Shown here piece after piece: positions 2,154-60,922 of a stretch of DNA of 64,000 nt. The stretch's first letter is position 1. Every line of letters starts with the position of its first letter. The translations under genes were made by a program, and so were the position numbers. Source of the stretch: Escherichia phage APCEc01; the sequence record NC_029091.1. The stretch is one strand, 5' to 3'. The notes beneath the pieces are model-generated. The model worked only from the letters and a program-made list of their open reading frames with translations, was not told the origin of the DNA and made no database searches.

Positions 2154-2183
2154 GTTTACAACCACTAAAAACTGTGTTAAGAT
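2154..2183 (+). promoter_or_regulatory. T4-type early promoter
   Basis: GTTTAC, 18-nt spacer, TGt + TAAGAT. ACAGTTT/AAACTGT inverted repeat across the -35 and spacer. Confidence 0.65.
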
Positions 2184-3474: not shown

Positions 3475-3635
3475 AAGAGAAATTTAAAGAGAAATTCTTA
3501 CTAGAAATCAAGGAAAAAGACTTTGAGACATGGTATCGAATGGTGAAAGGGTTGACATTGCTTTTTAAAGCATCCTTATTCATGTTAAAACAACCTGGTC
3601 CTGATGGTCCTTTAGTAGGAAAGCTTAAAAAGTAG
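3471..3635 (+). CDS. Hypothetical protein (54 aa), below the ORF-track cutoff
   Basis: ATGA coupling with the upstream ORF. MKEKFKEKFLLEIKEKDFETWYRMVKGL...; ends just before the promoter at 3635. Confidence 0.45.
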   Translation: MKEKFKEKFLLEIKEKDFETWYRMVKGLTLLFKASLFMLKQPGPDGPLVGKLKK

Positions 3636-3663
3636 TTTACATTCCCTCCTCTCGTGTTATGAT
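3635..3663 (+). promoter_or_regulatory. T4-type early promoter
   Basis: GTTTAC, 17-nt spacer, TGt + TATGAT. Confidence 0.7.
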
Positions 3664-3690: not shown

Positions 3691-4272
3691 ATGACATGTC
3701 AATCTGAACTTCAAGAACGTGAATACCTAACAAATCTGATTGATAGCAAATTCACCCGCCAAGAACAAAACATTCTCTGGGCTTGCACCGATTCTAAGGA
3801 AGACCCGGATTTCCACTATGAATTAGACCATCTTGTTCGTAAGCATATGACTTCTACAGCACCAGTAGAACTCTACCGTGGTGTAACTCCAGAAGAAGTA
3901 GAACGTCTTTCCCTTCTTTCTGTTGGATGCCATTGGTCTCCTGGACGAGTAACGTCGTTCACAACTGATTTCAGTACAGCTCGTCAATTCTCCGGGAGAT
4001 GGGAATATCAGACGTACACTATTCTTAGTCTCAGGAATGCTCCATTCATTTTTGATTACTACCAAAATATGGTTAACATTGTACTCGCCGGAAAGAACCC
4101 TAAGCATGTTATGGAAGAAACTCGTATCGATGTCCTAGATATGATTGAATCTGAACAAGAGTACATGGTCTCAGGCATCTCTCGATTTGAGATTGTGGAA
4201 ATTGAAGACTTAGAATATGACCCTTTATCTCGATTATACAAAATCATTCATTTGAAAATGTTGAATTTTTAG
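3691..4272 (+). CDS. modB: ADP-ribosyltransferase, ModB position
   Basis: 193 aa. R-S-E ART triad visible: LYRGV, VTSFTTD, EQEYMVSG. Paralog of the next ORF. T4 transcription order is modB then modA. Confidence 0.75.
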   Translation: MTCQSELQEREYLTNLIDSKFTRQEQNILWACTDSKEDPDFHYELDHLVRKHMTSTAPVELYRGVTPEEVERLSLLSVGCHWSPGRVTSFTTDFSTARQFSGRWEYQTYTILSLRNAPFIFDYYQNMVNIVLAGKNPKHVMEETRIDVLDMIESEQEYMVSGISRFEIVEIEDLEYDPLSRLYKIIHLKMLNF

Positions 4273-4301
4273 TGTACAAACTCTTCCGATGATGATATTA
4301 T
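4272..4301 (+). promoter_or_regulatory. T4-type early promoter
   Basis: GTGTAC, 18-nt spacer, TGa + TATTAT. Confidence 0.65.
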
Positions 4302-5012: not shown

Positions 5013-5041
5013 GTGTACACTACCTGAGGGCATGATATTAT
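5013..5041 (+). promoter_or_regulatory. T4-type early promoter
   Basis: GTGTAC, 17-nt spacer, TGa + TATTAT. Similar to the promoter at 4272. Confidence 0.65.
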
Positions 5042-8154: not shown

Positions 8155-8184
8155 GTTTACAACCAAGGATGGTTGGAGTATAAT
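8155..8184 (+). promoter_or_regulatory. T4-type early promoter (CCAAGGATGG family)
   Basis: GTTTAC, 18-nt spacer, TATAAT. The spacer CCAAGGATGGTTGGAG recurs at 8713, 46418 and 55061. Confidence 0.75.
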
Positions 8185-8712: not shown

Positions 8713-8742
8713 TTGTACATCCAAGGATGGATGGAGTATAGT
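8713..8742 (+). promoter_or_regulatory. T4-type early promoter (CCAAGGATGG family)
   Basis: TTGTAC, 18-nt spacer, TATAGT. Confidence 0.65.
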
Positions 8743-9668: not shown

Positions 9669-9697
9669 GTTTACTTCTCCTCCGGTTTTGATATTAT
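9669..9697 (+). promoter_or_regulatory. T4-type early promoter
   Basis: GTTTAC, 17-nt spacer, TGa + TATTAT. Confidence 0.7.
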
Positions 9698-9723: not shown

Positions 9724-10248
9724 ATGTTAGTTTACCGCGTAGAACGTAGTTTTTGTACTCAACGTGAATCATTACCAGGAATTGCTATCGAAGACGGTAA
9801 AGCCGTCAGAATTTGGGAAACCTCTTGGAATAAAGAACCTCGCTCGCCATACGGTTGGTCGGGCACCGACAACTCTGAAGAAACATGGGAGTTCCTTAAT
9901 AAGCATGGAATACTCTCAGGTAACTTCTACCATCACGGCGACAACTATAATGTCCCTAATCGTCCTACAGTAAATGAAGACAAACTCCTTGAACAAAATA
10001 TCTTAAGATACTATAGAATTGAGCACACATTTGAATTGAACGAAGATTGGGCTCAAGGGTTCTATTTTGGATTTGAAAGTGTTGACGCGGTTTATGCATG
10101 GTTTGATGACCAGGTGGATGTTGAACTCTTGAAAGCTAAAGGATACTACATCGCGGTCTATGAAGCACCTGATTTCATCCTCGGAAGTTGTCAATTAATG
10201 TTTAGACGTTCATTGGCAGAACAAGTTGATTTTATTTTGCTAAAATGA
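9724..10248 (+). CDS. Hypothetical protein (174 aa, Trp-rich)
   Basis: GAGGAG SD. No motif recognised. Confidence 0.7.
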   Translation: MLVYRVERSFCTQRESLPGIAIEDGKAVRIWETSWNKEPRSPYGWSGTDNSEETWEFLNKHGILSGNFYHHGDNYNVPNRPTVNEDKLLEQNILRYYRIEHTFELNEDWAQGFYFGFESVDAVYAWFDDQVDVELLKAKGYYIAVYEAPDFILGSCQLMFRRSLAEQVDFILLK

Positions 10249-10277
10249 TGTACAACAACTATGGTCTATGATACTAT
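10248..10277 (+). promoter_or_regulatory. T4-type early promoter (TATAGACCTATCAA family)
   Basis: ATGTAC, 18-nt spacer, TGa + TACTAT. GGTCTA/TAGACC inverted repeat around the -10. Confidence 0.6.
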
Positions 10278-18888: not shown

Positions 18889-18918
18889 GTTTACAACTAA
18901 GTAGGACTATGATATAGT
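18889..18918 (+). promoter_or_regulatory. T4-type early promoter within a stem-loop
   Basis: GTTTAC, 18-nt spacer, TGa + TATAGT. TAGGACTA/TAGTCCTA inverted repeat brackets the -10. Confidence 0.75.
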
Positions 18919-19400: not shown

Positions 19401-19430
19401 GTTTACAACAAGGTAGGATTATGGTATAGT
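19401..19430 (+). promoter_or_regulatory. T4-type early promoter within a stem-loop
   Basis: GTTTAC, 18-nt spacer, TGg + TATAGT. GTAGGATTA/TAGTCCTAC imperfect inverted repeat. Confidence 0.75.
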
Positions 19431-19661: not shown

Positions 19662-19691
19662 TTGTACAAACTCTTGAGAGCAGAGTATAAT
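19662..19691 (+). promoter_or_regulatory. T4-type early promoter within a stem-loop
   Basis: TTGTAC, 18-nt spacer, TATAAT. TGAGAGCA/TGCTCTCA perfect 8-bp inverted repeat. Near-copy of the cassette at 47823. Confidence 0.75.
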
Positions 19692-21947: not shown

Positions 21948-21971
21948 GTGCATTTTTTTTCTCACAAAACA

Positions 21972-22000
21972 GTTTACTTTTGCTTCAAACATGATAGTAT
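21972..22000 (+). promoter_or_regulatory. T4-type early promoter (duplicated cassette, copy 1)
   Basis: GTTTAC, 17-nt spacer, TGa + TAGTAT. Contains the MotA-box-like TTTGCTTCA. Confidence 0.7.
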
Positions 22001-22039
22001 AAACCTATCAAAACAAAACAACCAAATTGGAGAAATAAA

Positions 22040-22255
22040 ATGTCTAAAATGAAATTAACTCAAAACACAACTACTCGTTTCGGTAAAGTTAAACCTGGTA
22101 TGAATGCTCCCCGTAAAGCACTTGTTGAAGAATTAAATTTCTTAGAAGTTGAAATCAATTCTTTAGTGGTTCGCGGTTCAAATGGACATCATTTAGAAAA
22201 GCTTCGTTCTAAAAAGGCAAAACTTATTGGCCTTATTAAAGAAATGAGTTTGTAA
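22040..22255 (+). CDS. Hypothetical basic protein (71 aa), motA.1 position
   Basis: GGAG SD. Lies between 52 and motA, as T4 motA.1 does. Confidence 0.65.
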   Translation: MSKMKLTQNTTTRFGKVKPGMNAPRKALVEELNFLEVEINSLVVRGSNGHHLEKLRSKKAKLIGLIKEMSL

Positions 22256-22292
22256 ATTTTACCAGGGCTTTTGAAAAAGAGCCCAAAATAAA

Positions 22293-22321
22293 GTTTACTT
22301 TTGCTTCAAACATGTTATTAT
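22293..22321 (+). promoter_or_regulatory. T4-type early promoter (duplicated cassette, copy 2)
   Basis: GTTTAC, 17-nt spacer, TGt + TATTAT. About 80 bp is near-identical to the region at 21971. Confidence 0.7.
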
Positions 22322-22358
22322 AGACCTATCAAAACAAATACTAATTTGGAGAAATAAA

Positions 22359-22991
22359 ATGTCTAAAGTTACTTACATCATCAAAGCTTCTGAAAACGCT
22401 CTGAATGAAAAAACTGCTGCAATAATGGTTTATATCATTAAGAACAACTTCACCACTGCTGCCAATGTCCGTGAAGCTCTGGAAGCAGAATACAATGCAT
22501 CGGTTGTTAACTCTAACATTGGCGTATTGATTAAGAAAGGTTTAGTCGAAAAATCTGGTGATGGACTTATAGCAACAGGCGAAGCAATGGATATTATCCA
22601 AAAAGCTGCAGACCTCTTTGCCCAAGAAAATGCTCCAGAACTTCTTCAGAAACGTAACACTAGAAAAGCACGTGGAGTTACTCCTGAAATGCATGAATTA
22701 GCAAACTTTGTTTTTGAAAATATTAAAGATAAAGTTGAAGTTAAAGAAATTGGCGAAAACCGTAGTAACTTGGAAGTTCGATTTGCAAAACGAGTTCTAG
22801 GTATTCGTCAGATCGAAATTCGTCGAAATGGTTCTCTTAGAATCTTTGCATACAACATGTCAGAAACTGAATCAAAGCTGTTTACTTCTCTTGAAAATGA
22901 TGTTAAGATTAAGATCGGTGGTAAATATACTTACATTGACTTCCCTAATGTGTCCAAAGAAATCATTACCCTTGTAACTAACGTACTGTGA
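22359..22991 (+). CDS. motA: Middle-transcription activator MotA
   Basis: 210 aa. MSKVTYIIKAS...NSNIGVLIKKGLVEKSGDGLI...QENAPELL matches remembered T4 MotA. Confidence 0.93.
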   Translation: MSKVTYIIKASENALNEKTAAIMVYIIKNNFTTAANVREALEAEYNASVVNSNIGVLIKKGLVEKSGDGLIATGEAMDIIQKAADLFAQENAPELLQKRNTRKARGVTPEMHELANFVFENIKDKVEVKEIGENRSNLEVRFAKRVLGIRQIEIRRNGSLRIFAYNMSETESKLFTSLENDVKIKIGGKYTYIDFPNVSKEIITLVTNVL

Positions 22992-24655: not shown

Positions 24656-24806
24656 TCTTCAGAACGTAGTAGAGGCCGAACGTGAGCGTGAGGCTTTAGT
24701 CTATAATGAACTATTAGTTCAATTCTTGGTCTTACACTCGTACGAACAGGAAGACTATACCAATTACGTTAAAAGCGTAGAAAAAGCCGTTTACAATCAA
24801 CACTGA
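24645..24806 (+). CDS. Hypothetical protein (53 aa), asiA.1 position
   Basis: AAGGA SD. MSHNLQNVVEAEREREAL... Confidence 0.5.
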   Translation: MSHNLQNVVEAEREREALVYNELLVQFLVLHSYEQEDYTNYVKSVEKAVYNQH

Positions 24807-24818
24807 TAATGGTACTAT
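24789..24818 (+). promoter_or_regulatory. T4-type early promoter for asiA
   Basis: GTTTAC, 18-nt spacer, TGg + TACTAT. Confidence 0.75.
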
Positions 24819-35216: not shown

Positions 35217-35246
35217 GTTTACGCTTTCAAATGAGTGTGTTACTAT
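35217..35246 (+). promoter_or_regulatory. T4-type early promoter for rnh (divergent from P-late 34)
   Basis: GTTTAC, 18-nt spacer, TGt + TACTAT. Confidence 0.7.
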
Positions 35247-38515: not shown

Positions 38516-38544
38516 GTTTACTTCTTCCCTGGATGTGTTAGTAT
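38516..38544 (+). promoter_or_regulatory. T4-type early promoter (TATAGACCTATCAA family)
   Basis: GTTTAC, 17-nt spacer, TGt + TAGTAT. Confidence 0.7.
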
Positions 38545-38573: not shown

Positions 38574-38966
38574 ATGGAAATCGGAAAATCTTATATCATT
38601 AACCCTTTATTTAAAGATGACTTTGTTCAAGAAGCACCACACAATAATGCTAAGATGTTAAAATTGATTGAACTCCACGGGCCTAGTTTTGTTGTAAACG
38701 GAATGGAACCTGATTATGATAGCGATACGTCAAACGTAGTAAGTGTAACTATGGAAGATGGTACTGTATGTTCTGCCGGTGGTGAAATTGAAACTTATTT
38801 TGAGATTTATCCTGACGAGTTCAAATACTTTACTGAGGTAGATATAGTAAAGCCTCAACCTACTAACGAAGGTATAGCTTTAGGTGTAACAAAAATCCAT
38901 TGTATCGTAGATGAAACCAACGTCGACGAAATCATCGAACTTTTGCAAAAAACTTTTAAAAAGTAG
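38574..38966 (+). CDS. Hypothetical protein (130 aa), member of the dispersed paralog family
   Basis: ...GGEIETYFEIYPDEFKYFTEV... and C-terminal IHCIVDETNVDEIIELLQKTFKK resemble ORFs 10533 and 11128. Confidence 0.7.
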   Translation: MEIGKSYIINPLFKDDFVQEAPHNNAKMLKLIELHGPSFVVNGMEPDYDSDTSNVVSVTMEDGTVCSAGGEIETYFEIYPDEFKYFTEVDIVKPQPTNEGIALGVTKIHCIVDETNVDEIIELLQKTFKK

Positions 38967-38995
38967 TGTACAATCAGATAGGGTTATGTTATAGT
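38966..38995 (+). promoter_or_regulatory. T4-type early promoter within a stem-loop
   Basis: GTGTAC, 18-nt spacer, TGt + TATAGT. GATAGGGTTA/TAGCCCTATC imperfect inverted repeat. Confidence 0.7.
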
Positions 38996-40965: not shown

Positions 40966-40966
40966 A

Positions 40967-44823: not shown

Positions 44824-45234
44824 ATGAAAGATATCGCCGCCGAATATTCCTTTATTAAATATACAGAATTGGAGCTATTAGAAGATGCAACAATTAAAAC
44901 AGTTGATGTCCCTAATAAGAAAAATGTCATATATGCTATTGCTATAGATGACGAACTTGTGTATATTGGTAAAACCAAGAATTTAAAGAAACGCATTAAC
45001 TATTATCGAACAGCCATAAATCGAAAAGACCAGACTTCAGATTCAAGAAAATCACTTATGATTTTGGATGCCTTAATGCAAGGCAAAAAGGTTGAATTCT
45101 GGGCCCGCCAATGTTTTGACCTTTCAGTCACCAACGAACTTGGTTCAATGACCATCGCAACAATGGACCTTGAAGAACCGCTTTTTATCAAAAAGTTCAA
45201 CCCGCCTTGGAATATCCAACATAAGAAAAAGTAG
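44824..45234 (+). CDS. denA: Endonuclease II (GIY-YIG family)
   Basis: 136 aa (same as T4). VIYAIAIDDELVYIGKTKNLKKRINYY is a GIY-YIG motif. Lies after nrdB. Confidence 0.88.
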   Translation: MKDIAAEYSFIKYTELELLEDATIKTVDVPNKKNVIYAIAIDDELVYIGKTKNLKKRINYYRTAINRKDQTSDSRKSLMILDALMQGKKVEFWARQCFDLSVTNELGSMTIATMDLEEPLFIKKFNPPWNIQHKKK

Positions 45235-45263
45235 TTTACACACCACAAGGATTGTGGTACAAT
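45234..45263 (+). promoter_or_regulatory. T4-type early promoter within a stem-loop
   Basis: GTTTAC, 18-nt spacer, TGg + TACAAT. CCACAA/TTGTGG inverted repeat. Confidence 0.7.
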
Positions 45264-46417: not shown

Positions 46418-46447
46418 GTTTACAAACACCAAGGATGGTGATACTAT
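46418..46447 (+). promoter_or_regulatory. T4-type early promoter (CCAAGGATGG family)
   Basis: GTTTAC, 18-nt spacer, TGa + TACTAT. Confidence 0.7.
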
Positions 46448-47608: not shown

Positions 47609-47823
47609 CTAAAGAACAGCATGAATACATTAAAGGGCTTATCTATGAATCTGAAATGGCGGCTATGATTTATGGACGCCAGATTCAACGATTAGAATCT
47701 TTGCCTCCGACTAATGACCGCTTGTTAGTTCAGTCTCGTGCTAATCTGAAAAATGAATATCAGAATAAGTGGGCAGTAGCGACTAAAGCTCTTCATGAGT
47801 ATATTGAATCTTTAGTAAAATAG
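47599..47823 (+). CDS. Hypothetical protein (74 aa), pseT.1 position
   Basis: Overlaps the o-spanin 3' end. Helical and hydrophilic. Confidence 0.6.
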   Translation: MPMTKEQHEYIKGLIYESEMAAMIYGRQIQRLESLPPTNDRLLVQSRANLKNEYQNKWAVATKALHEYIESLVK

Positions 47824-47852
47824 TTTACAAACTCTCGGGAGCAGAGTATAAT
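47823..47852 (+). promoter_or_regulatory. T4-type early promoter within a stem-loop
   Basis: GTTTAC, 18-nt spacer, TATAAT. GGGAGCA/TGCTCC inverted repeat. Near-copy of the cassette at 19662. Confidence 0.75.
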
Positions 47853-49948: not shown

Positions 49949-49978
49949 GTTTACAACATGGTGGAGTTGTGATACTAT
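49949..49978 (+). promoter_or_regulatory. T4-type early promoter within a stem-loop
   Basis: GTTTAC, 18-nt spacer, TGa + TACTAT. GGTGGAGTT/AACTCTACC imperfect inverted repeat. Confidence 0.7.
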
Positions 49979-50355: not shown

Positions 50356-50363
50356 GGATTGTT

Positions 50364-51938: not shown

Positions 51939-52235
51939 ATGATTTTAACTGAACAAGAAACTATGGTTCTTCGTGAACGTATTAAAACTATTCTGTCTGT
52001 AGGCGTTCATTGTGTTGTATTTGAAAAGGCTAACGGTGATGTTCGTACGATGTTTGCCTCCCGCGATGAACTTGAAGTCAAATATGAAAATAACAATCCG
52101 GCAACAGAAGTTCGTTATGAACCTCGTGAATCAGTTCGAGCATTCGATACCAAGTTAGGTCAGTGGCGTTCTTTCCGCCTTGATAAAGTAATTTCGGTTG
52201 ATGGTACTCCGGTAGAACGTTTGCTTCTTATGTAA
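51939..52235 (+). CDS. Hypothetical protein (98 aa), cd.1 position
   Basis: ATG directly after the cd stop. Confidence 0.6.
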   Translation: MILTEQETMVLRERIKTILSVGVHCVVFEKANGDVRTMFASRDELEVKYENNNPATEVRYEPRESVRAFDTKLGQWRSFRLDKVISVDGTPVERLLLM

Positions 52236-52292
52236 TATGCTTTACGACTAGTATGATATTATTAATCTATCGTCAAACAACAAGGAAATAAG

Positions 52293-52625
52293 ATGTCTGA
52301 AGTACAACTCCCAATTCGTGCTGTTGGTGAATATGTCATTCTGGTTTCTGAACCCGCTCAAGCAGGTGATGAAGAAGTTACAGAATCAGGACTTGTGATT
52401 GGTAAACGTGTTCAAGGTGAAGTTCCTGAACTATGTGTAGTTCATTCTGTAGGTCCTGATGTTCCTGAAGGTTTTGTTGAAGTCGGTGATTTGACTCCAC
52501 TACCAGTTGGACAAATTCGAAATGTTCCACATCCATTTGTGGCTTTGGGACTTAAACAACCTAAAGAAATTAAACAGAAATTCGTAACATGCCACTATAA
52601 AGCTATTCCGTGTCTTTATAAGTGA
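52293..52625 (+). CDS. 31: Co-chaperonin gp31 (GroES analogue)
   Basis: 110 aa. Almost identical to remembered T4 gp31 ([34 protein letters not shown]...[11 protein letters not shown]). Confidence 0.96.
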
Positions 52626-52632
52626 TATAAAT
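52625..52632 (+). promoter_or_regulatory. Late promoter TATAAATA upstream of rIII
   Basis: Exact consensus immediately after the gene 31 stop. Confidence 0.6.
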
Positions 52633-52749
52633 AACTATATGAAGAGAACACTCTTCTAAGCGGTAGCCTACAACTGAGAGACTTGTCGAAAGAAGGTGAA
52701 ATTCAGACGAACGTGGCTACTAAATATTATCTCGAATTGAGAATTTAAA

Positions 52750-52998
52750 ATGATTAAACAATTACAACACGCTCTTGAACTGCAACGAAACGCATGGAAT
52801 AACGGTCACGAAAACTACGGCGCGTCGATTGATGTTGAAGCCGAAGCACTGGAAATCCTGCATTATTTCAAACATCTGAACCCGGTACAGGCAGCTTTGG
52901 CTTCTGAACTGGAAGCAAAAGATGAACTGAAATATGCTAAGCCTTTGGCTTCTGCAGCTCGTAAAGCAGTACGTCATTTTGTTATTACCCTTAAATAA
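52750..52998 (+). CDS. rIII: rIII lysis-inhibition accessory protein
   Basis: 82 aa (same as T4). Lies after gene 31. Helical. Confidence 0.8.
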   Translation: MIKQLQHALELQRNAWNNGHENYGASIDVEAEALEILHYFKHLNPVQAALASELEAKDELKYAKPLASAARKAVRHFVITLK

Positions 52999-53295
52999 GT
53001 TTTAGGTGATTCGCTACCTTAAGTGCGGCTAGAAAATCGAGGAGCCGTCGAACTGTCTGATTAATGATTTGCGAATCATTATAGTTTTAAGGCCCCGGCA
53101 GTTTTACGGTGTACCTCTTGAATGTATTTTGTACTATCACGCGTCAGAAAAAGGTTATCTGTCTAAGTCGTGGTTGGTATGATGACGGGTTTATGGTTAT
53201 CCTGTCGGTAAATATTCAAAACCTAAGTACCCCTTTGAGGGCTTTCGCAGGCAATGCCAATAAGTCCTGCATTTTCATTTAAAAGAGAATTTATA

Positions 53296-53472
53296 ATGGC
53301 AAAACAAGTTAAAGCAAAGAAAGCAGTTGAAAAGAAAGTTGGTGATTCTAAACGCGCTGGCTACAAGCGTGGGTCGAACTCTCGTATCAATCAAACTGTT
53401 GAGAAGATCATGCGCCGAGCACGTGCGGTTCTTCGAGATGATGCTTCTCGTTTTGGAAAGGTTGTTGCATAA
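53296..53472 (+). CDS. Highly basic small protein (58 aa)
   Basis: MAKQVKAKKAVEKKVGDSKRAGYKRGSNSRINQTVEKIMRRARAVLRDD... An in-frame upstream ATG at 53254 is possible. Followed by a strong terminator. Confidence 0.55.
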   Translation: MAKQVKAKKAVEKKVGDSKRAGYKRGSNSRINQTVEKIMRRARAVLRDDASRFGKVVA

Positions 53473-53477
53473 TTTTA

Positions 53478-53499
53478 GGGAGACTTCGGTCTCCCTTTT
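53478..53499 (+). terminator. Intrinsic terminator
   Basis: GGGAGAC-TTCG-GTCTCCC followed by TTTT. The hairpin is identical to the one after gene 32. Confidence 0.85.
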
Positions 53500-53531
53500 G
53501 TGCGTTTAGGGCGGAAAAAGTTTAAAAAGAT

Positions 53532-53560
53532 GTTTACTCTCCTGTAGGATGTGTTACTAT
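53532..53560 (+). promoter_or_regulatory. T4-type early promoter (TATAGAC family)
   Basis: GTTTAC, 17-nt spacer, TGt + TACTAT. Confidence 0.7.
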
Positions 53561-53602
53561 AGACTTGTACCACCTAATCAATAAAACAACCTGGAGAACA
53601 AA

Positions 53603-53971
53603 ATGAAAATCAATCTGAACTCATACATCAAATGTAAAGACCATGATGGTTATAAAGCTATCGAAATTAAAGAATTCCAGTGGATGTTATACAAAGAGCA
53701 ATTTGAGTTCGTAGGTTGTATGACCCCTGAAGGTCCTTCTGATGATTTCTCTTGGAAAATTGTGTTAGCAAACTTTTTCACAGGTGACACATACGAATTA
53801 AAAACTATTATTACCGGTAAAATTCGTTCAGAAACATATGTTGACGAAGAAACTGGTTACTCTGAAGATGTTACATGGTATCAAAATGGACGCATTACCG
53901 CAGATAACCTGATCGAAAAAATGAAAGCCAAAGGTGTTTTAAATTTAGACAATTGGATTAAAGTTGCATAA
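53603..53971 (+). CDS. Hypothetical protein (122 aa)
   Basis: GGAG SD; promoter-proximal. Confidence 0.65.
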   Translation: MKINLNSYIKCKDHDGYKAIEIKEFQWMLYKEQFEFVGCMTPEGPSDDFSWKIVLANFFTGDTYELKTIITGKIRSETYVDEETGYSEDVTWYQNGRITADNLIEKMKAKGVLNLDNWIKVA

Positions 53972-53975
53972 AACA

Positions 53976-54004
53976 GTTTACTTTGGTACAGGTTATGTTA
54001 TTAT
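53976..54004 (+). promoter_or_regulatory. T4-type early promoter within a 10-bp perfect stem-loop
   Basis: GTTTAC, 17-nt spacer, TGt + TATTAT. TGGTACAGGT/ACCTGTACCA inverted repeat. Confidence 0.75.
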
Positions 54005-54045
54005 AGACCTGTACCAACAAACAACTTAAACATCTGGAGAATAAA

Positions 54046-54411
54046 ATGAACTACACCAACTTCGAACGTAAATATGTTTCTAACGGTATTGCTGGTTCTT
54101 CTGAAGTTATTTGCTTATGGAAACACGAAAACGGTACAGTTTGTGAAATCGAACAGTGCATGACTCCTAATTACGTTTATATGCGATTTGAAAATGGTAT
54201 CACGGTTTCAATCACGATGGAAGGTTCAAATTTTAAAATTGCATTAGATGATGATTTCCGTCAGCGTGATTTAGGTACTCATCCTTGCTGGAATGGTGTT
54301 AATCGTAAACTTCTGGTTAAAACTTGGATTCGTCATATCCTGAGTAACCGAGCTAAACCTGAACATCTTGAAGCAATCTTTGATGTAGTTCTTAACGAAT
54401 TTGATATCTAA
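54046..54411 (+). CDS. Hypothetical protein (121 aa)
   Basis: GGAG SD; promoter-proximal. Confidence 0.65.
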   Translation: MNYTNFERKYVSNGIAGSSEVICLWKHENGTVCEIEQCMTPNYVYMRFENGITVSITMEGSNFKIALDDDFRQRDLGTHPCWNGVNRKLLVKTWIRHILSNRAKPEHLEAIFDVVLNEFDI

Positions 54412-54418
54412 ATTAATT

Positions 54419-54434
54419 GGGAGCCGAAGCTCCC
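54419..54434. other. Stable hairpin whose UUCG loop reads on the minus strand
   Basis: Plus strand GGGAGC-CGAA-GCTCCC. There is no T-run on the plus strand. Confidence 0.6.
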
Positions 54435-54446
54435 ACTGAGGAAATT

Positions 54447-55061
54447 ATGTTTAAAGTTAATACTTTTTATAAAATGAATTTTAAAAATGGGGATATTACT
54501 CCACACCTTAAAAACATGTTCTCATATGACCTTATTGAGCCTTTTGAAGTTTTAGAAGTTACTGATGCCGGCTCAGTTTGTGAAATTAGAACTTCTGAAG
54601 GTAAAATTTATCAGGCCGGTGTTGGTAAATTCAGTAATTGTTTTACTTTAATATTCTCGACCGATTTAGATGAGCATTTTATTGAATGTCCTAACCCTAA
54701 GGTCTATGAAGTTCCACATCAAGAAACTAAGAAAAATGGACCGCACGAATATACGAAGGTTGAAACTCCTCACGGCGTGATGTGGCGACATAACTCTCCT
54801 TTTGGAAGTAAAGGAACATTTGCTCAACTGGCTAAGCCCTACGACGATGAAAAATATGTAGTAGTCCTTTTATCTGAACAGGGTACTCAAGACCGTGGAT
54901 GCCAGCGTTCTGGTTTATTGAGTGAACTCGAAGCTCATAACCTAGCACGTGAATTCGTTGAGAAAAATCCTGGTTCTGAAGCTCTAGTCATGAAAGCAAT
55001 TACTCAATATATCACTGCTCAACCTGTTGTTCATCCGGTAGAAATTAATTTCATTAAGTAG
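54447..55061 (+). CDS. Hypothetical protein (204 aa); N-terminal domain related to the dispersed paralog family
   Basis: MFKVNTFYKMN...FEVLEVTDAGSVCEIRTSEGKIYQAGVGKF...DLDEHFIEC. The track start at 54417 lies inside the hairpin and is rejected. Confidence 0.65.
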   Translation: MFKVNTFYKMNFKNGDITPHLKNMFSYDLIEPFEVLEVTDAGSVCEIRTSEGKIYQAGVGKFSNCFTLIFSTDLDEHFIECPNPKVYEVPHQETKKNGPHEYTKVETPHGVMWRHNSPFGSKGTFAQLAKPYDDEKYVVVLLSEQGTQDRGCQRSGLLSELEAHNLAREFVEKNPGSEALVMKAITQYITAQPVVHPVEINFIK

Positions 55062-55091
55062 TGTACATCCAAGGACGGATTAGAGTATAAT
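55061..55091 (+). promoter_or_regulatory. T4-type early promoter (CCAAGGA family)
   Basis: GTGTAC, 19-nt spacer, TATAAT. Confidence 0.6.
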
Positions 55092-55115
55092 GATTTCTTT
55101 AGTAAGTGGAAAAAT

Positions 55116-55313
55116 ATGAAATTTTTAATAGCACAAACAGTCCAATTAAAAGGTGTTGGAATCCCTGGGATGATTTTTAAAGTTCTCAACGAATTTAAAA
55201 CTGCCGCTGGAATTATCAATGAAGCGTATGCTGTTCAATGGGTTGATGGGACTTCTGACATACGTATGGGTAAAGAGTTATCTCCTATTAAAGGGTTGAA
55301 ACATGTTGAATAA
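55116..55313 (+). CDS. Hypothetical protein (65 aa)
   Basis: Promoter-proximal ORF. Confidence 0.6.
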   Translation: MKFLIAQTVQLKGVGIPGMIFKVLNEFKTAAGIINEAYAVQWVDGTSDIRMGKELSPIKGLKHVE

Positions 55314-55521
55314 ATTAATCCAGAAATTGTTTGGTACGGAAATGATTGAAGTTACTTATCGTGTAACCGACGTTTTTCCATATTACGCGGAAAACCGTTT
55401 AGAACCATACGTTACGTCAATTAAAATGCCTAAAAATGACAGAAATTTATCTATCGAAGACCGTATACCTGGATACGGACATTGGGCTGATGTTGAAATT
55501 ATAAGTGTTAAAGATGTCTGA
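55303..55521 (+). CDS. Hypothetical protein (72 aa)
   Basis: Overlaps neighbouring ORFs at both ends. Confidence 0.55.
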   Translation: MLNKLIQKLFGTEMIEVTYRVTDVFPYYAENRLEPYVTSIKMPKNDRNLSIEDRIPGYGHWADVEIISVKDV

Positions 55522-55972
55522 ATTAGAAATAAGAAGTAATTTCAAATGGCCGTCATGTGCATTAAGTAACTTTGCTCAATGGCCTTTTGTTATGGATGGT
55601 ATTCAATTCGGAGGTCTTGAAGGATTTCTCCAAGGATGTAAGGTGAAAAATGTTGAACAACAAAGACGTATATTTGGGTTGTCTGGATTGGCTGCACAGC
55701 AAGCTGGAAGGTCTTACGCAAGAGCTCAGGACCGTGGGACTCTCTTCTGGTTAGGAGTTCCATTTTCAAGATACTCCGAAGCGTGGAAAGAATTATACAC
55801 AAATGCATATTTTGAAGCCGCGATCCAAAACAAGGGGTTTCGTGATGCCTTACAAGCCTCTAAAGGAAAAATTTTGAAGCACAGCATGGCCAGCCACCTA
55901 ACAAAAGATGATACAATACTAACTGAAGATGAATTTATTGACGTGTTAAACCTATTAAGAGACTCTTTATGA
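55514..55972 (+). CDS. NADAR (YbiA/DUF1768)-like protein
   Basis: 152 aa. LSNFAQWPFVMDGIQFGGLEGFLQGCKV aligns by eye with the E. coli YbiA block FSNFAAWPIKVDGKTWPTSEHYFQAQKF. A downstream W...F(E/R)..L...K.L.H block also aligns. Confidence 0.5.
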   Translation: MSELEIRSNFKWPSCALSNFAQWPFVMDGIQFGGLEGFLQGCKVKNVEQQRRIFGLSGLAAQQAGRSYARAQDRGTLFWLGVPFSRYSEAWKELYTNAYFEAAIQNKGFRDALQASKGKILKHSMASHLTKDDTILTEDEFIDVLNLLRDSL

Positions 55973-56793
55973 AGCCTACTATTTTGACTGATATTGATGG
56001 TGTATGTTTAAGCTGGCAATCTGGACTTCCTTATTTTGCCCAAAAATATAACCTTCCATTAGAACATATTTTAAAAATGATTCAGGACGAAAAATTTATT
56101 TCTCCTGGTAAACTGTTCAATACCGACGATAACCTTGGTAAACAATTAATAGAAAAATATAATAGCTCTGATTTTATTCGTTACTTAGCGCCTTATTCTG
56201 ATGCTCTTCGAGTTATCAATAAACTAAAAGAAGACTATAATTTTGTAGCCGTGACGGCGCTAGGTGATTCAATTGATGCTCGATTGAATAGACAATTTAA
56301 TTTGAATGCTTTGTTCCCAGGCGCTTTCTCTGAAGTAATGATGTGTGGTCATGATTCTTCAAAGGAACAATTATTCGAACTAGCTAAAACAAAATATAAC
56401 GTAATTTGTTACGTTGACGATTTAGCTCATCATTGTGACCATGCGGCAGAAATTCTTAATGTACCGATTTATTGGTTGGCTCGTGGTGAACGTGATGCCA
56501 TTCCTCGTACTGCACAACGTGTACACACGTGGGATGATATTGAATCTCGTTTGGTTCTGCCTAAGAATAATTCAGATTCAGATCGTGAAGACCTTTTAAA
56601 ACGATTGGCGGATTTGCTTAAAGAATCTGGTGCAACAAGTCCAGGTGCATGGCCCAATCAAATTGGTGGCCCCTCGACAACACGTACTCCATATACCTGG
56701 CGAACCCAAGGACCAACTGATATGCAGCCGTGGTGGACGATTCAAAACTTTCCTTTAGATTCGTCTAAATGGACTTGGTCTATAAATTGTTAA
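55969..56793 (+). CDS. HAD-superfamily phosphatase-like protein (30.2 position)
   Basis: 274 aa. N-terminal DxDG motif LTDIDGVCL and a later YVDD. Trp/Pro-rich C-terminal tail. Confidence 0.6.
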   Translation: MKPTILTDIDGVCLSWQSGLPYFAQKYNLPLEHILKMIQDEKFISPGKLFNTDDNLGKQLIEKYNSSDFIRYLAPYSDALRVINKLKEDYNFVAVTALGDSIDARLNRQFNLNALFPGAFSEVMMCGHDSSKEQLFELAKTKYNVICYVDDLAHHCDHAAEILNVPIYWLARGERDAIPRTAQRVHTWDDIESRLVLPKNNSDSDREDLLKRLADLLKESGATSPGAWPNQIGGPSTTRTPYTWRTQGPTDMQPWWTIQNFPLDSSKWTWSINC

Positions 56794-58805: not shown

Positions 58806-60893
58806 ATGTCTGAACAATTAAATGAAGTGTTTGAATCTGAAGGCAGTCTTCCTGTCGTCAATTTGAACCCTAAAGCTAAAGTTCCACAAGTCTGGAAAAT
58901 TGGTGATATCGATACAAATATTGTAGTTCGTTTATTCTCTTACCTTTCCGAAGGCGACGCTGTAAAACAAGTTAAACTTGGCGACAAATACGCTCATGTT
59001 GTTATTATGAGTCTGTCTGAAAAGGGTAATCTCGCTGAATTGAAAAATGGCCTTGGTCCTGCTCCTATTGATGCAATCAACACCATTTTCAATACAGTAT
59101 ATGAACAAGTTAAAGCTCTTCGTATGGATGCAGTTCTGTTCCGATTCCCTACCAAGAAATTGAAAGGACGTGGACAACAGCTTCAAACTCTTCTTGCTCG
59201 TTTAGTTTCTACTAAAACCGGTGGTCGTTTTAAAGTATTGTCGGCAATGTATCAATTCACAGGTAAACACACCTATGTGATGATGGTTCGTAAAAATGCC
59301 AACATTGAAGATATTAAAGGCATCCCTAACATTAACACAGAGTTGTACACGAAAGTAGATTCTGATGTTGGCGAAGTTTATGTGAGTAAAAAGACCGGCG
59401 AAAAAGTCACCAAAGAAACGGCTATCGCTGGTTCTATTGCTGCTGTAGAAGAAAAACGTAAAGATAAGCCTGTTATTGCTCGTACTAAAATTTCTCGTCG
59501 TGCTATTGCCGCAAGCCAATCTTTAGAAGCTGACCGCCAAGAAGGTGAGTTATTCCAGAAATACGAAAATTCTGCTAAAGAAGTTAGTGGCCCGGCTACA
59601 GCCGAATTACTTCCTGAAGCATATGAAATCGTACTAGCCCAAGCATCATCCACAGCAAAAGGCACTTTAGTTGCTGATATCGAAAATAAGATTTATAATC
59701 GTATTGATGAATCCTTTAGATTTGCTGATGAAGTTTCTTATGGTAGTGTTATTAAGCCAACTTTAGAAAAGTTTGCTAAGAAAATTAAAACTGAAAAAAC
59801 AACATCTGTTAAAGCATTAGCTGCTTTTGTTGAAGCTGCAAACGAAATTGCGGACTCTATTAAAGACGAATGGTTTGAAGATTTTAGACGTGATAATTTC
59901 CAACTGGCCGACGATGTTTTAGCTGAAGTATCTGAAAAAACTTGGAAACAACGTAAATCAGCGTTCTTGTCTAATGTGATGTATACTTATGCACGAGAAT
60001 CGGCTAGAGGCACCTTTAATATAACAATGAATCGGGACCCTAAACAATACTCTGTTGCTGAAAAACGAGCTATTCGCGAATATGCCTCTTCTGCGTATAC
60101 CGATATCAATAATATGTTGTTAGGCCGTTATAAACCGGATTTTTATGATGTTGCAGATGAAGATGAAGTTAAACGCGCTATTGATGGTCTTGATTCGGCG
60201 TTTTTAAATGGAGACCGTTTACCTGAAGGACTAACGTTGTATAGAGCCCAGTCTATCAGAATGCCTATTTACGAAGCAATGGTTAAAAATAAGGTATTCT
60301 ACTTCAGAAACTATGTTTCTACTTCATTAGCTCCTATTATTTTTGGTGGGTTTAAAGAGAACGTTGCCCTTGGACTTGCTCCTGAAGAAGTTCGCAAAGA
60401 GCTTAACATTGACAATAATGACGAAGGTGTTACTATTTCTCCTAGCCTGGCACGTACCGCTATGCATGCGCCAGAACAAATTCGTGTTAATGTTGGATGG
60501 GCCATTGATGGCGCTCATAAAGTTAACGTGATTTATCCCGGACAGTTGAGTAATCACCCTAATGAGCAAGAAATTATTTTGCCTAGAGGCATTCTCTTGC
60601 AGATAAATAAAATTACAGATGCGTCATCTGACACTGGTGCAGGTTTAGAATCCAACCTTAAATTTATTCAAGCTGAAGTCATGTCCTCGGACCAGTTGGA
60701 CGAAGCTGTCATTTACGATGGTGATGTTCTCATGGAAACAGGCGAGGTAGTTGCTATGACGGGTGAAATCGAATCAGATGAGCCGGTATCTTTTGCCTCA
60801 TTTGTAGAAAAAACTAGTGCACCTAAAGGTTTGAAATTGTTAGCATCTTTAATGGATTTAGAATCAGTTCCGTTTAAATTTATCCAAGGATAG
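58806..60893 (+). CDS. alt: Packaged ADP-ribosyltransferase Alt
   Basis: 695 aa (T4 682). C-terminal ART triad LYRAQS, YVSTSLAP, EQEIILPRG. Lies between 30 and 54. Confidence 0.88.
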   Translation: MSEQLNEVFESEGSLPVVNLNPKAKVPQVWKIGDIDTNIVVRLFSYLSEGDAVKQVKLGDKYAHVVIMSLSEKGNLAELKNGLGPAPIDAINTIFNTVYEQVKALRMDAVLFRFPTKKLKGRGQQLQTLLARLVSTKTGGRFKVLSAMYQFTGKHTYVMMVRKNANIEDIKGIPNINTELYTKVDSDVGEVYVSKKTGEKVTKETAIAGSIAAVEEKRKDKPVIARTKISRRAIAASQSLEADRQEGELFQKYENSAKEVSGPATAELLPEAYEIVLAQASSTAKGTLVADIENKIYNRIDESFRFADEVSYGSVIKPTLEKFAKKIKTEKTTSVKALAAFVEAANEIADSIKDEWFEDFRRDNFQLADDVLAEVSEKTWKQRKSAFLSNVMYTYARESARGTFNITMNRDPKQYSVAEKRAIREYASSAYTDINNMLLGRYKPDFYDVADEDEVKRAIDGLDSAFLNGDRLPEGLTLYRAQSIRMPIYEAMVKNKVFYFRNYVSTSLAPIIFGGFKENVALGLAPEEVRKELNIDNNDEGVTISPSLARTAMHAPEQIRVNVGWAIDGAHKVNVIYPGQLSNHPNEQEIILPRGILLQINKITDASSDTGAGLESNLKFIQAEVMSSDQLDEAVIYDGDVLMETGEVVAMTGEIESDEPVSFASFVEKTSAPKGLKLLASLMDLESVPFKFIQG

Positions 60894-60922
60894 TTTACAA
60901 ACACATGGATGTGTGATACTAT
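60893..60922 (+). promoter_or_regulatory. T4-type early promoter within a stem-loop
   Basis: GTTTAC, 18-nt spacer, TGa + TACTAT. ATGGATG/CATCC(c)AT inverted repeat. Confidence 0.7.

Follow-up and report, generated by a model that had tools for sequence, protein, structure and literature searches.

The two early promoters on either side of the gene 30.8 homologue, between genes 30.9 and 30.7, raise the question of why one of them carries a hairpin around its -10 box and the other does not, and whether such promoters are mobile regulatory cassettes resembling promoter-early stem-loops (PeSLs), as the first-pass annotation of this DNA had proposed. The stretch analysed here (the window, 64,000 nucleotides) belongs to a T4-like coliphage of the genus Mosigvirus with 99% identity to phages JK36 and SCS57, and the locus is made up of the following features:

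53478..53499, + strand: intrinsic terminator after gene 30.9, GGGAGAC-TTCG-GTCTCCC followed by TTTT
53532..53560, + strand: early promoter of the 30.8 homologue, weight matrix score 33.3 bits
53603..53971, + strand: gene 30.8 homologue, 122 aa, named 30.8 in the JK36 annotation
53976..54004, + strand: early promoter of the 30.7 homologue, weight matrix score 36.5 bits
53983..54017, + strand: hairpin embedded in the 30.7 promoter, 11-bp perfect inverted repeat
54046..54411, + strand: gene 30.7 homologue, 3' of the hairpin-bearing promoter

Two differently built promoters flank the gene 30.8 homologue

The terminator at 53478-53499 makes up the 5' half of the left cassette; its TTCG loop is conserved, its stems covary in the comparison with T4 and locus L007, and the 65 nt 5' of promoter 53532 fold with -19.7 kcal/mol. 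Promoter 53532 itself (-35 GTTTAC at 53532-53537, 17-nt spacer, -10 TACTAT at 53555-53560) retains just the 3' half-arm CTTGTACCA that it has in common with promoter 53976, and we rejected it as a stem-loop promoter, as its RNA fold has a z of +0.4 and an embedded hairpin is absent. In promoter 53976 (-35 GTTTAC at 53976-53981, 17-nt spacer, -10 TATTAT at 53999-54004), which is kept in T4 and at least 12 other loci, the arms TTGGTACAGGT (53983-53993) and ACCTGTACCAA (54007-54017) enclose a loop consisting of the TGn motif and the -10 box, and the RNA fold of -17.9 kcal/mol (z -4.67) was equalled in stability by 0 of 200 shuffles. The gene separating the two cassettes is a variable module: its product is 37% identical in amino acid sequence to T4 gp30.8, while the flanking DNA is 82-92% identical.

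The window holds 25 T4-type early promoters at gene junctions

The estimate of about 25 T4-type early promoters made in the first-pass annotation turned out to be exactly 25, all on the + strand and separated from background by a clean gap. With a position weight matrix built from these sites, all of them score at least 20.8 bits and no further site of at least 12 bits lies elsewhere on either strand of the window; re-finding the 25 is circular because the matrix was trained on them, and the informative part is the absence of others. The 346 sites that the matrix returned over 72 T4-like loci all lie on the gene strand (0 on the other), and the matrix also recovers the orthologous promoters in T4 itself. 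A generic sigma-70 scan of the window gave 65 matches versus 56.5 expected and cannot discriminate these promoters, and we therefore relied on the T4-type matrix instead.

The extended consensus of the 25 promoters (aaaAa..GTTTACaa.c......Ga.taTG.TAttATa..CcTATCaa) carries the UP tract, GTTTAC, TGn, TAnnAT and +1 positions of T4-type early promoters. From 5' to 3', a cassette comprises the upstream stop codon, an A-rich UP-like tract, the -35 hexamer GTTTAC, a spacer of 17-18 nt with TGn at its end, the -10 box TAnnAT, a start region with additional conserved positions near +1 (CcTATCAA), a CA-rich unstructured leader, a Shine-Dalgarno sequence (SD) and ATG. All 25 sites have the PeSL-type layout of intergenic promoter, SD and start codon and are co-oriented with the early genes and, as far as can be read from the sequence, every cassette occupies the whole gene junction. 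The cassettes are predicted to be very strong sigma-70 early promoters, a high strength being established for T4 early promoters. The claim that every cassette precedes open reading frames of unknown function did not hold, as 11 of them precede genes named in the JK36 annotation: modB (3635), modA (4272), srd (5013), motB (8713), cef (10248), ndd (19662), motA (22293), asiA (24789), rnh (35217), rnlA (45234) and alc (46418). The early promoters other than the focal pair are as follows:

2154..2183, + strand: early promoter, UUCG terminator upstream, embedded hairpin absent
3635..3663, + strand: modB early promoter, -35 hexamer overlapping the upstream stop codon by one base
4272..4301, + strand: modA early promoter, by weight matrix and consensus
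5013..5041, + strand: srd early promoter, by weight matrix and consensus
8155..8184, + strand: early promoter of the CCAAGGATGG family
8713..8742, + strand: motB early promoter, CCAAGGATGG family
9669..9697, + strand: early promoter, by weight matrix and consensus
10248..10277, + strand: cef early promoter, embedded hairpin GGTCTAT/ATAGACC, z -3.5
18889..18918, + strand: early promoter, embedded hairpin TAGGACTA/TAGTCCTA, 8 bp, z -3.1
19401..19430, + strand: early promoter, embedded hairpin with a U·G pair, z -3.7
19662..19691, + strand: ndd early promoter, embedded hairpin TGAGAGCA/TGCTCTCA, 8 bp, z -3.6, family of 47823
21971..22048, + strand: motA-type promoter (21972) with 5'-UTR and ATGTCTAAA, left copy of a 78-nt direct repeat
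22292..22369, + strand: motA early promoter (22293), right copy of the 78-nt direct repeat
24789..24818, + strand: asiA early promoter, by weight matrix and consensus
35217..35246, + strand: rnh early promoter, by weight matrix and consensus
38516..38544, + strand: early promoter, UUCG terminator upstream, embedded hairpin absent
38966..38995, + strand: early promoter, embedded hairpin GATAGGGTTA/TAGCCCTATC with a U·G pair, z -6.8
45234..45263, + strand: rnlA early promoter, hairpin CCACAA/TTGTGG confined to the spacer
46418..46447, + strand: alc early promoter, concerted evolution with 60893
47823..47852, + strand: early promoter, embedded hairpin GGAGCA/TGCTCC, z -2.7
49949..49978, + strand: cd.2 early promoter, 13-bp hairpin with a G·U pair, z -5.2
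55061..55091, + strand: 30.5 early promoter, 19-nt spacer, CCAAGGACGG variant
60893..60922, + strand: alt.-3 early promoter, hairpin not significant (5 bp, z +0.3)

The cassette type of 19401 also occurs at a non-orthologous place in loci L007, L011 and L019.

A hairpin in one fixed register brackets the -10 box in a third of the promoters

Inverted repeats bracketing the -10 region had been described for many of these promoters, and they are present in some and lacking in others: a perfect repeat of at least 6 bp brackets the -10 box in 7 of 25, and the longest stem between a promoter's own spacer and its own downstream segment averages 4.92 bp compared to 3.67 bp when the segments are cross-paired (permutation p<5e-5). 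Overall, 7-9 of the 25 promoters have a significant embedded hairpin, 5 others have an upstream UUCG terminator and about 10 have neither, and the share with an embedded hairpin is only about one third. Among the examples put forward earlier, the repeat at 53976 was recovered with a length of 11 rather than 10 bp (z -4.7), and the hairpins at 19662 and 18889 (8 bp each, z -3.6 and -3.1), 38966 and 49949 (z -6.8 and -5.2) withstood the analysis, whereas the one at 60893 has only 5 bp (z +0.3) and that at 45234 (6-7 bp) lies wholly in the spacer instead of around the -10 box. Hairpins were also found in three promoters beyond these examples (19401, 47823 and 10248). A search of the entire window against Rfam at gathering thresholds gave 0 matches, and the hairpins are thus not a curated RNA family.

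We then used a wider sample of 267 unique promoters out of the 72 T4-like loci, in which promoters of related phages are not independent instances, a problem that group-level tests lessen and do not abolish; since a MotA-anchored scan of viral contigs supplied 2 loci only, the window is only thinly covered by the sample between 12 and 33 kb. Repeats of at least 6 bp between a promoter's own arms occur in 35% of the 267 promoters versus 5.7% of cross-paired controls, and repeats of at least 8 bp in 20% versus 0.7%. When approximate orthologue or family groups are counted instead, 33 of 134 have the repeat, compared to the 5.7% background (p 7e-13). The pairing is concentrated in one register, with at least 6 consecutive pairs in 90 of 267 promoters (register -2 has 36 and most other registers 0-14), and the dyad axis is fixed on the first two bases of the -10 box or between them (T-12/A-11). 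The spacer supplies the 5' arm, and the 3' arm begins where the -10 box ends and extends to about +3, with a mean stem of 8.1 bp and a mean loop of 11.1 nt that includes TGn and the -10 box. Stem sequences diverge widely between promoters while complementarity is retained, and all four Watson-Crick pair types are present at the outer positions; the innermost pairs (aT at -4/-3 with the AT that ends the -10 box) belong to the promoter consensus. These comparisons indicate that the inverted repeat is a real hairpin under selection.

Mismatches inside the stems point to the strand on which pairing is selected. They comprise 18 G·T and 1 A·C mismatches and 3 of other kinds, compared to 351, 225 and 523 in the cross-pair null (binomial p 8e-5 and Fisher p 0.0015), with the G·T cases spread over at least 12 different promoter groups. 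This bias identifies the sense strand, at the level of sequence, as the strand selected for pairing; a hairpin in the non-template DNA strand would be expected to produce the same bias.

Embedded hairpins and upstream terminators are nearly mutually exclusive

At the focal locus a terminator precedes one promoter and a hairpin lies within the other, and in the wider sample the two elements hardly ever occur together. A repeat of at least 6 bp was found in 4 of 50 promoters with an upstream hairpin-plus-T-run terminator versus 89 of 216 promoters without one (Fisher p 2.4e-6), and by group in 1 of 28 versus 32 of 106 (p 0.0025). The terminator-preceded promoters 2154, 21972, 22293, 38516 and 53532 have the weakest core folds in the window. 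Of the promoters at which the upstream gene extends to the -35 hexamer itself, so that a separate terminator does not fit, about 40% encode the hairpin. Among promoters without an upstream terminator, 59% also have no repeat of at least 6 bp, which shows that the hairpin is not obligatory.

Hairpins followed by a T-run that qualify as intrinsic terminators are present at 53478-53499, at ~21921-21945 and before promoters 2154 and 38516. A U-tract, scored as at least 5 T within the 8 nt past the 3' arm, follows 0 of 94 embedded hairpins; canonical intrinsic termination is thus unlikely for them, and we rejected the embedded hairpin as a canonical terminator. The anticorrelation suggests that at tight junctions the hairpin takes the terminator's place, a predicted role; a search of the literature for T4 termination sites or measured 3' ends gave nothing usable.

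Promoters share more sequence than their consensus accounts for

Three sequence families, two of promoters and one of a 5'-UTR motif, had been recognized in the window beyond the -35 and -10 elements, and all three are real. For the first (10248, 22293 and 38516), exact copies of TATAGACCTATCAA are found at 10275, 22319 and 38542 and variants of it at 21998 and 24816, a count reached by 0 of 100 shuffles. For the second, CCAAGGATGG is present at 8163, 8721 and 46429 and CCAAGGACGG at 55069 (family count reached by 1 of 100 shuffles), and the shared 5'-UTR motif was likewise retrieved, at 38551, 46454 and 60929 (0 expected). Using column shuffles that keep the position-specific consensus, we found 10 promoter pairs with in-register exact runs of at least 13 nt; at its 99th percentile, the null gives 14 for the second-longest pair of promoters and 10 for the pair ranked tenth. 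Overall pairwise identity, a family test less sensitive than the exact-run statistic, placed only 3 promoter pairs above the null. The similarity therefore extends past the hexamers, to which it might have been limited, although much of it is extended consensus, and the excess of shared sequence above the consensus-preserving null is modest.

Cassettes as substrates for recombination

The clearest exchange involves the two motA-promoter copies, 78-nt direct repeats with a 321-bp promoter-plus-ORF unit between them. The left copy drives a 71-aa ORF (22040-22255), and exchange between the copies deletes 321 bp. JK36 positions 40951-41028 (locus L002) align to both 78-nt copies, and the unit is missing from JK36, L021, L022 and many other Mosigvirus records (about half); of the records in the phage collection, 74 cover the region in full, and many others, at 95-98% identity, cover ~76% of it in two pieces. 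At the focal locus, phage LZ lacks gene 30.8, and both endpoints of the deletion lie in the 5'-UTRs of the two cassettes. Homology blocks begin at the -35 hexamer of 53976/7 in 10 loci and of 60893 in 7 loci, and promoter-only homology islands are found at non-orthologous places. In SHSML-52-1, the -35 hexamer and spacer at 38514 are duplicated in tandem over 16 nt. P(alc) and P(alt.-3), the early promoters of alc and alt.-3, lie 14.5 kb apart, are identical at 41 of 42 positions within T4-type genomes and have in Mosigvirus a common type that differs from the T4 type. Sequence exchange is needed to account for promoters that match each other within a genome and share another type in a different genus, and the pattern indicates that the two promoters evolve in concert.

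Breaks fell at promoter-bearing junctions in 0.32 and at other gene junctions in 0.23 of loci (p=0.08), with no excess per nucleotide. As this enrichment is not significant, we do not claim a genome-wide association and examined close relatives instead, in which about 10 of about 12 recent indels involve homing endonucleases or microhomology and about 2 are bounded by cassettes. Homology-block ends accumulate at many gene boundaries in the whole set, which includes distant loci. Comparison of indel breakpoints with cassette positions thus yielded individual cassette-bounded events and no significant enrichment at promoter junctions, and of the earlier reading as PeSL-like mobile cassettes the anatomy and individual cassette-bounded events stand while the mobility is not supported. 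The cassettes can, judging from these alignments, act as recombination substrates, and we saw no evidence for a dedicated mobility mechanism.

A probable composite cassette and the alternatives to it

Taken together, the promoters are probably best explained as compact composite regulatory cassettes, each consisting of a promoter, an optional hairpin in read-through RNA and an occasional crossover site. The promoter's own transcript would begin inside the 3' arm of the hairpin, and with such a start the hairpin would form only in read-through RNA from upstream promoters. In this RNA the hairpin would stand in for the canonical UUCG-loop terminators of roomier junctions, and its effect may be to attenuate or pause read-through or to shield the upstream message at its 3' end; a terminating or attenuating action gains indirect support from the sense-strand G·U bias and the near-exclusivity with canonical terminators. 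Because cassettes share 15-80 nt of near-identical sequence in the same orientation, T4-type homologous recombination would occasionally cross over between them, and the products, in part seen above, would be deletion, duplication or swapping of the intervening genes and homogenised promoters. More tentatively, the -10-centred hairpin could be a distinct class of promoter-embedded RNA insulator or 3'-end element that lacks a U-tract and is evolutionarily interchangeable with UUCG terminators. T-even-type phages would then use the element at every junction where the next promoter directly follows the end of a gene, and the dyad would lie at T-12/A-11 because the arms fit only into two sequence-free parts of the promoter. 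That the repeat additionally works on the non-template strand of the DNA as the promoter opens is less likely.

A simpler account holds that there is only a long constrained promoter and leader consensus, with neither hairpin function nor cassette exchange, and that repeats, apparent families and block boundaries all result from purifying selection on promoter strength and translation initiation beside fast-evolving small genes. It gains from the column shuffles, in which consensus alone accounts for most pairwise identity and 3 pairs exceed the null, from the innermost stem pairs being part of the consensus, and from junction-level breakpoint enrichment being non-significant with most recent indels unrelated to cassettes. 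We nevertheless consider it unlikely, since the cross-pair controls retain the consensus, yet their repeat frequency is 6- to 30-fold lower, and four pair types occur at the outer stem positions. Moreover, selection on promoter strength predicts neither the 18:1 bias of G·T over A·C nor the anticorrelation with terminators, the identity of P(alc) and P(alt.-3) needs exchange, and the 321-bp unit is flanked by the 78-nt repeat.

Still less probable in our judgement is a hairpin that works at the DNA level, on the non-template strand or as a transient cruciform, exposing the -10 box and speeding open-complex formation. The dyad between the first two -10 bases in 90 of 267 promoters coincides with the upstream edge of the transcription bubble known from sigma-70 structures, and the G·T bias is on the non-template strand, whose sequence is that of the RNA; the fixed register, however, is also expected if the arms are limited to the sequence-free positions flanking TGn and the -10 box. 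A melting aid should stay needed beside a terminator, yet the two are nearly mutually exclusive, and two thirds of equally high-scoring promoters have no repeat. In addition, the region of the 5' arm (-15 to -25) is established to be duplex in the open complex. The idea that the repeat is the operator of a dimeric phage or host DNA-binding regulator that shuts off early promoters, for which dyad symmetry over the -10 box would be a classical position, is very improbable and was rejected, as complementarity is conserved but sequence is not, the arms being wholly different among promoters (for example GGTAGGACT, AGGGCTAT, GAGAGCCAT, TTGGTACAGGT and AAAGATGGATTCA), and as the tolerance of G·T but not A·C is a single-strand signature.

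Relation to published PeSL elements

Published PeSLs combine a strong early promoter, an AT-rich upstream tract, a stem-loop mostly between -35 and -10 or overlapping -10, an SD and an ATG, and are repeated genome-wide (PMC2839356, PMC4122927). The match of the window cassettes to these promoter/stem-loop elements is well supported, and the kind of element is largely known. Like the PeSLs of RB49 and phi1 (Arbiol et al. 2010, PMC2839356), the cassettes are intergenic composites of stop codon, AT tract, promoter, SD and ATG repeated in early regions, with the stem-loop between -35 and -10 or over -10 and with G·T pairs in the stems. ORFs between neighbouring RB49/phi1 PeSLs differ in presence from one close relative to another, and crossovers map between -10 and SD/ATG (PMC2839356), and the LZ and motA-repeat events have the same geometry. 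The promoters and stems differ, near-perfect TTGACA/TATAAT and G/C-rich GGGG...CCCC stems in RB49/phi1 (PMC2839356) standing against GTTTAC, TGn, TAnnAT and mixed stems (of the GGTAGG...CCTACC kind) in one fixed register without U-tracts in the window, which makes the window element a T-even-type analogue rather than a sequence homologue. One RB49/phi1 stem terminated transcription as well as rrnB T1 in a reporter (PMC2839356); this terminator assay and the mini-circles belong to the RB49/phi1 side, whereas the window cassettes are known as sequences.

The PeSLs of T4 and PST (Comeau et al. 2014, PMC4122927) have the same consensus, TTTACW N17 TAYWAT, and lie preferentially near indels and replacements in hyperplastic regions; their AGNA-loop-TCNT stems fit the AGGA...TCCT and AGGG...CCCT stems of our analysis. 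That study covered T4 and PST rather than Mosigvirus, and a figure legend in it places the stems 'just upstream' of the promoter, whereas we distinguish upstream terminators from -10-bracketing hairpins, the two being nearly exclusive. The cassettes also resemble the T4 'uber' UP/-35/TGn/-10 promoters (Hinton 2010, PMC2988021) in the A-tract, GTTTAC, TGn and extra positions; the text of that review makes no mention of secondary structure overlapping -10, and the hairpin layer is additional here. Like canonical Rho-independent terminators, the embedded hairpins stand where a transcription unit ends, and they differ in the absent U-tract, less G+C-rich stems and long loops (~11 nt). Elements at T-even internal-protein loci, as described where they are cited (Repoila et al. 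1994, in PMC2839356), have T4-type promoters with AT-richer, weaker stem-loops and flank highly polymorphic small genes; they are described there for two loci, whereas the window pattern is genome-wide in early regions. We found no earlier report, in the literature searched, of the fixed register, the 18:1 bias of G·U over A·C or the exclusivity with terminators.

The cassettes mark every Mosigvirus early transcription unit, yet they are unannotated in deposited records, and a simple weight matrix with 0 opposite-strand matches in 72 loci could be used to annotate them. For T-even-type phages the PeSL idea is sharpened, in that the stem-loop looks like a sense-strand RNA replacing a terminator between genes arranged end to end, which offers a testable hypothesis on the insulation of strong tandem promoters in very compact genomes. 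The notion of a mobile cassette is tempered at the same time, the cassettes being one crossover route among several and not demonstrably preferred over other junctions. For engineering, they are natural portable promoter-leader units, and their direct repeats are likely sites of instability.

Gene order and early promoters

The window is taken from a T4-like coliphage of the genus Mosigvirus. It covers the early-gene half, is oriented along early transcription and has a T4-like gene order:

1-25 kb: early genes (primase, modA/B, dda, dexA, gene 39, rIIA/B, ndd, gene 52, motA, asiA)
26-35 kb, opposite strand: late tail-fibre genes
35-62 kb: rnh to alt (rnh, gene 32, frd, td, nrdAB, rnlA, alc, pseT, cd, gene 31, rIII, 30.9-30.1, ligase, alt)

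Shigella phage JK36 is 99.3% identical to window 52000-56000, and phage vB_EcoM_SCS57 is 99.2% identical to window 21700-22700, at the same coordinates.

The first-pass annotation had counted about 25 T4-type early promoters, and a loose pattern search and then a weight matrix derived from its sites recovered 25 (20.8-45.1 bits), all on the + strand and named here by the position at which the -35 hexamer begins. No further site of at least 12 bits was detected on either strand of the window, and this absence is the informative part, since the matrix was trained on the same 25 sites; in a generic sigma-70 scan of the window they were not distinguishable from noise. Their consensus, aaaAa..GTTTACaa.c......Ga.taTG.TAttATa..CcTATCaa, extends well beyond the two hexamers and is of the known 'uber' UP/-35/TGn/-10 T4 early promoter type (PMC2988021). 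In 16 of the 25, including 3635, 4272, 10248, 38966, 45234, 47823, 55061 and 60893, the distance from the end of the upstream stop codon to the -35 hexamer is 0-6 nt. In 8 promoters the two share a base, the G of TAG being the first base of GTTTAC. At such junctions the cassette (promoter plus leader) is thus the entire intergenic region, and the A-rich UP-like tract lies within the upstream gene's C-terminal codons. The cassettes had been said to precede only ORFs of unknown function, which is wrong, as 11 precede modB, modA, srd, motB, cef, ndd, motA, asiA, rnh, rnlA and alc.

The three proposed sequence families are real, if modestly so: their motifs are present where they had been placed, above shuffled expectation. 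Against a column-shuffle null that retains the extended consensus, only 3 pairs stand out by identity, while exact in-register runs (13-19 nt) exceed the null 99th percentiles in 10 pairs; self-comparison found likeness that is not restricted to the hexamers.

Inverted repeats bracketing the -10 box

We compared each promoter's own spacer and downstream segment with all cross-pairings, a design that retains the consensus, and found a mean longest stem of 4.92 bp for own pairings versus 3.67 bp for cross-pairings (p<5e-5; 25 promoters), with own-arm stems of at least 6 bp in 7 of 25. RNA folding z-scores of -2.7 to -6.8 were obtained for 53976, 18889, 19401, 19662, 38966, 49949, 47823 and 10248. 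The proposed embedding of promoters in inverted repeats therefore holds for about a third of the 25, but not for 53532 and 60893 (z +0.4 and +0.3), for which it had also been claimed. At 45234 there is a small hairpin confined to the spacer. In T4, the early promoter that follows gene 32 (locus position 3767) carries a perfect 12-nt palindrome, ATAAAGCTTTAT, wholly within the spacer, a placement unlike that of the class bracketing the -10 box.

A wider sample comprised T4, SHSML-52-1 and 69 viral-contig loci anchored on gp30.7, MotA and DexA, in which the matrix found 346 sites, every one of them on the gene strand. Among the 267 unique promoter sequences, own-arm repeats of at least 6 bp occurred in 35% (5.7% of cross-pairs) and of at least 8 bp in 20% (0.7%), and 33 of 134 approximate orthologue or family groups carried a repeat (p 7e-13 against background), with residual non-independence among related promoters remaining in these statistics. 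The stems are wholly different between promoters with complementarity kept (GGTAGGACT/AGTCCTACC, AGGGCTAT/ATAGCCCT, GAGAGCCAT/ATGGCTCTC, AAAGATGGATTCA/TGAATCCATCTTT), and the outer stem positions use all four Watson-Crick pair types. Numbered from the first base of the -10 box, the dominant register pairs position -k with k+1: 90 promoters have at least 6 consecutive pairs in this register, versus 36 in register -2 and 0-14 in most others. Isolated internal stem mismatches were G·T in 18 cases, A·C in 1 and others in 3 (cross-pairs: 351, 225 and 523), a G·T excess (binomial p 8e-5, Fisher p 0.0015) that is spread over at least 12 promoter groups. This bias of G·T over A·C points to a single-stranded structure of the sense strand.

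Embedded hairpins and terminators

Within the window two promoter architectures are cleanly distinct. Promoters 2154, 21972, 22293 (the motA promoter), 38516 and 53532 lie 38-121 nt beyond the previous gene and have the weakest core folds; upstream of each stands a canonical terminator, in most cases a UUCG-loop hairpin with a T-run. The embedded hairpins sit in promoters directly adjoining the stop codon of the gene before them.

53478-53499: terminator with TTCG (UUCG) tetraloop, after the 30.9 stop codon
about 21921-21945: terminator with TTCG (UUCG) tetraloop, before promoter 21972
upstream of promoters 2154 and 38516: terminators with TTCG (UUCG) tetraloop

Terminator stems covary between phages (GGGAGAC/GTCTCCC in the window versus GGACTCC/GGAGTCC in T4); in the terminator at 53478-53499 the stem does so relative to T4 and other phages while the TTCG loop stays constant. 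In the wider sample, repeats of at least 6 bp were found in 4 of 50 promoters with an upstream terminator versus 89 of 216 without (p 2.4e-6), and at the group level in 1 of 28 versus 32 of 106 (p 0.0025).

As the 94 embedded hairpins all lack a following U-tract, we rejected their identification as canonical intrinsic terminators. The predicted start, the A at +1 in CcTATC, falls within the 3' arm, so that the promoter's own RNA would lack the hairpin and only read-through RNA from upstream could form it. Our reading is that the hairpin would take a terminator's place at junctions too tight to hold one, and it may act on read-through transcripts as an attenuator, pause site or 3'-end protector.

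A scan also listed as a minus-strand terminator-like site the hairpin TGGGAGC-CGAA-GCTCCCA at 54418-54435, between 30.7 and 30.6, whose minus-strand loop is TTCG; there is no minus-strand gene nearby.

The 30.8-30.7 locus

Interval 53532-54045 contains the promoters preceding the 30.8 and 30.7 homologues, in the order 30.9 stop codon, terminator, P30.8, gene 30.8, P30.7:

53532-53560, + strand: P30.8, no hairpin
53976-54004, + strand: P30.7, with an 11-bp hairpin at 53983-54017

The hairpin core of P30.7, GGTACAGG...CCTGTACC, is kept in T4, and in 10 loci a homology block starts at 53976/7, where the -35 hexamer begins. The gene 30.8 product has only 37% protein identity to T4 gp30.8, while the flanking DNA is 82-92% identical. 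P30.8 and P30.7 have TATAGAC(T/C)TGTACCA and GGAGAA(C/T)AAAATGAA in common, in direct orientation. In phage LZ, which lacks 30.8, the P30.8 leader joins the 30.7 start codon directly, placing both deletion endpoints within cassette leaders. This natural LZ deletion (L079, about 990-1017) also took the 30.7 Shine-Dalgarno (the junction reads ...cacaaacaaaaATG), so 30.7 would there be translated from a leader without one.

Cassettes and recombination

The proposed shuffling of gene modules by cassettes is partly supported, by individual events. Among three larger differences between the window and its closest relative, JK36, is a 321-bp unit consisting of promoter 21972 and a 71-aa ORF (found in 92 phage records), flanked by a direct repeat of 78 nt that spans the motA promoter, its leader and the three initial codons; the region is complete in 74 records, and exactly this unit is missing from many others (95-98% identity). 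The promoters of alc (46418) and alt.-3 (60893), 14.5 kb apart, are identical at 41 of 42 positions within T4-type genomes, and in Mosigvirus share a type different from that of T4-type genomes, which indicates exchange between cassettes. The 19401 cassette type also occurs in JS98-like genomes ahead of a different gene, and the conserved 47823 promoter type is followed by differing genes.

Other observations speak against a special role of the cassettes. Across all loci, breaks affected promoter-bearing junctions in 0.32 of loci versus 0.23 for other junctions (p=0.08), with no per-nucleotide excess. The tail-fibre region aside, close relatives (JK36, SHSML-52-1, ST0, HX01 and several viral contigs) show about 12 recent, independent indels. 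Just two of them are cassette-located, the 321-bp unit and a promoter duplication of 16 nt; the remainder are homing-endonuclease insertions, microhomology deletions and one 1.1-kb gene insertion. The duplication, in the SHSML-52-1 orthologue of 38516 (L005, about 5476-5497), tandemly repeats GTTTAC and the first 10 spacer nt, yielding two overlapping -35 boxes, and looks like slippage inside the promoter cassette.

Relation to known promoter-early stem-loops

The suggested likeness to promoter-early stem-loops (PeSLs) is sustained by anatomy and proposed role, which fit the cassettes of RB49/phi1 (PMC2839356) and T4/PST (PMC4122927). The AGNA-loop-TCNT stem type reported for PST is also matched here, whereas RB49-type PeSLs have TTGACA promoters and G/C stems, and the window elements are not their sequence homologues. 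Judged by sequence, the window cassettes would belong to this already known kind, and the overall pattern is recognisable. The fixed dyad register, the bias of G·U over A·C and the near-exclusivity with canonical terminators were not found reported in the PeSL and T4 promoter literature examined; these are a testable refinement of PeSLs rather than a new class, and the evidence for terminator substitution is the part of mild interest to the specialist.

Other differences from relatives

Just after the rIII stop codon, 52999-53133 holds 135 extra bases versus 3 nt in SHSML-52-1, ST0 and a further locus (L006), and is 32 nt shorter in HX01; it contains a weak promoter-like site below the matrix threshold (GTGTAC-N17-TACTAT at 53109). 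Relative to JK36 and T4, a 1.1-kb insertion lies at 50258-51353, with a junction overlap of 13-19 nt and no promoter cassettes at its borders. Its ORF (50364-51356) is annotated as phospho-2-dehydro-3-deoxyheptonate aldolase (DAHP synthase) in SHSML-52-1, ST0 and HX01 and, lying between cd.2 and cd, would be an auxiliary metabolic gene. The distal tail-fibre region (27222-29239, - strand) is replaced relative to JK36 (2016 versus 2241 nt, no megablast similarity), the usual host-range mosaic. Relatives carry 670-800 nt insertions at window points 11602, 13428 and 36789, all absent from the window: an HNH endonuclease before gene 39 (HX01), an insertion after gene 39 (two further relatives, L021 and L023) and, separating genes 33 and 59, a homing endonuclease (SHSML-52-1). 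L023 (viral contig UViG_2974739009), a close relative, also has an in-frame 438-nt deletion (window 3709-4147, junction overlap 9 nt) inside the modB ADP-ribosylase homologue (3691-4272).
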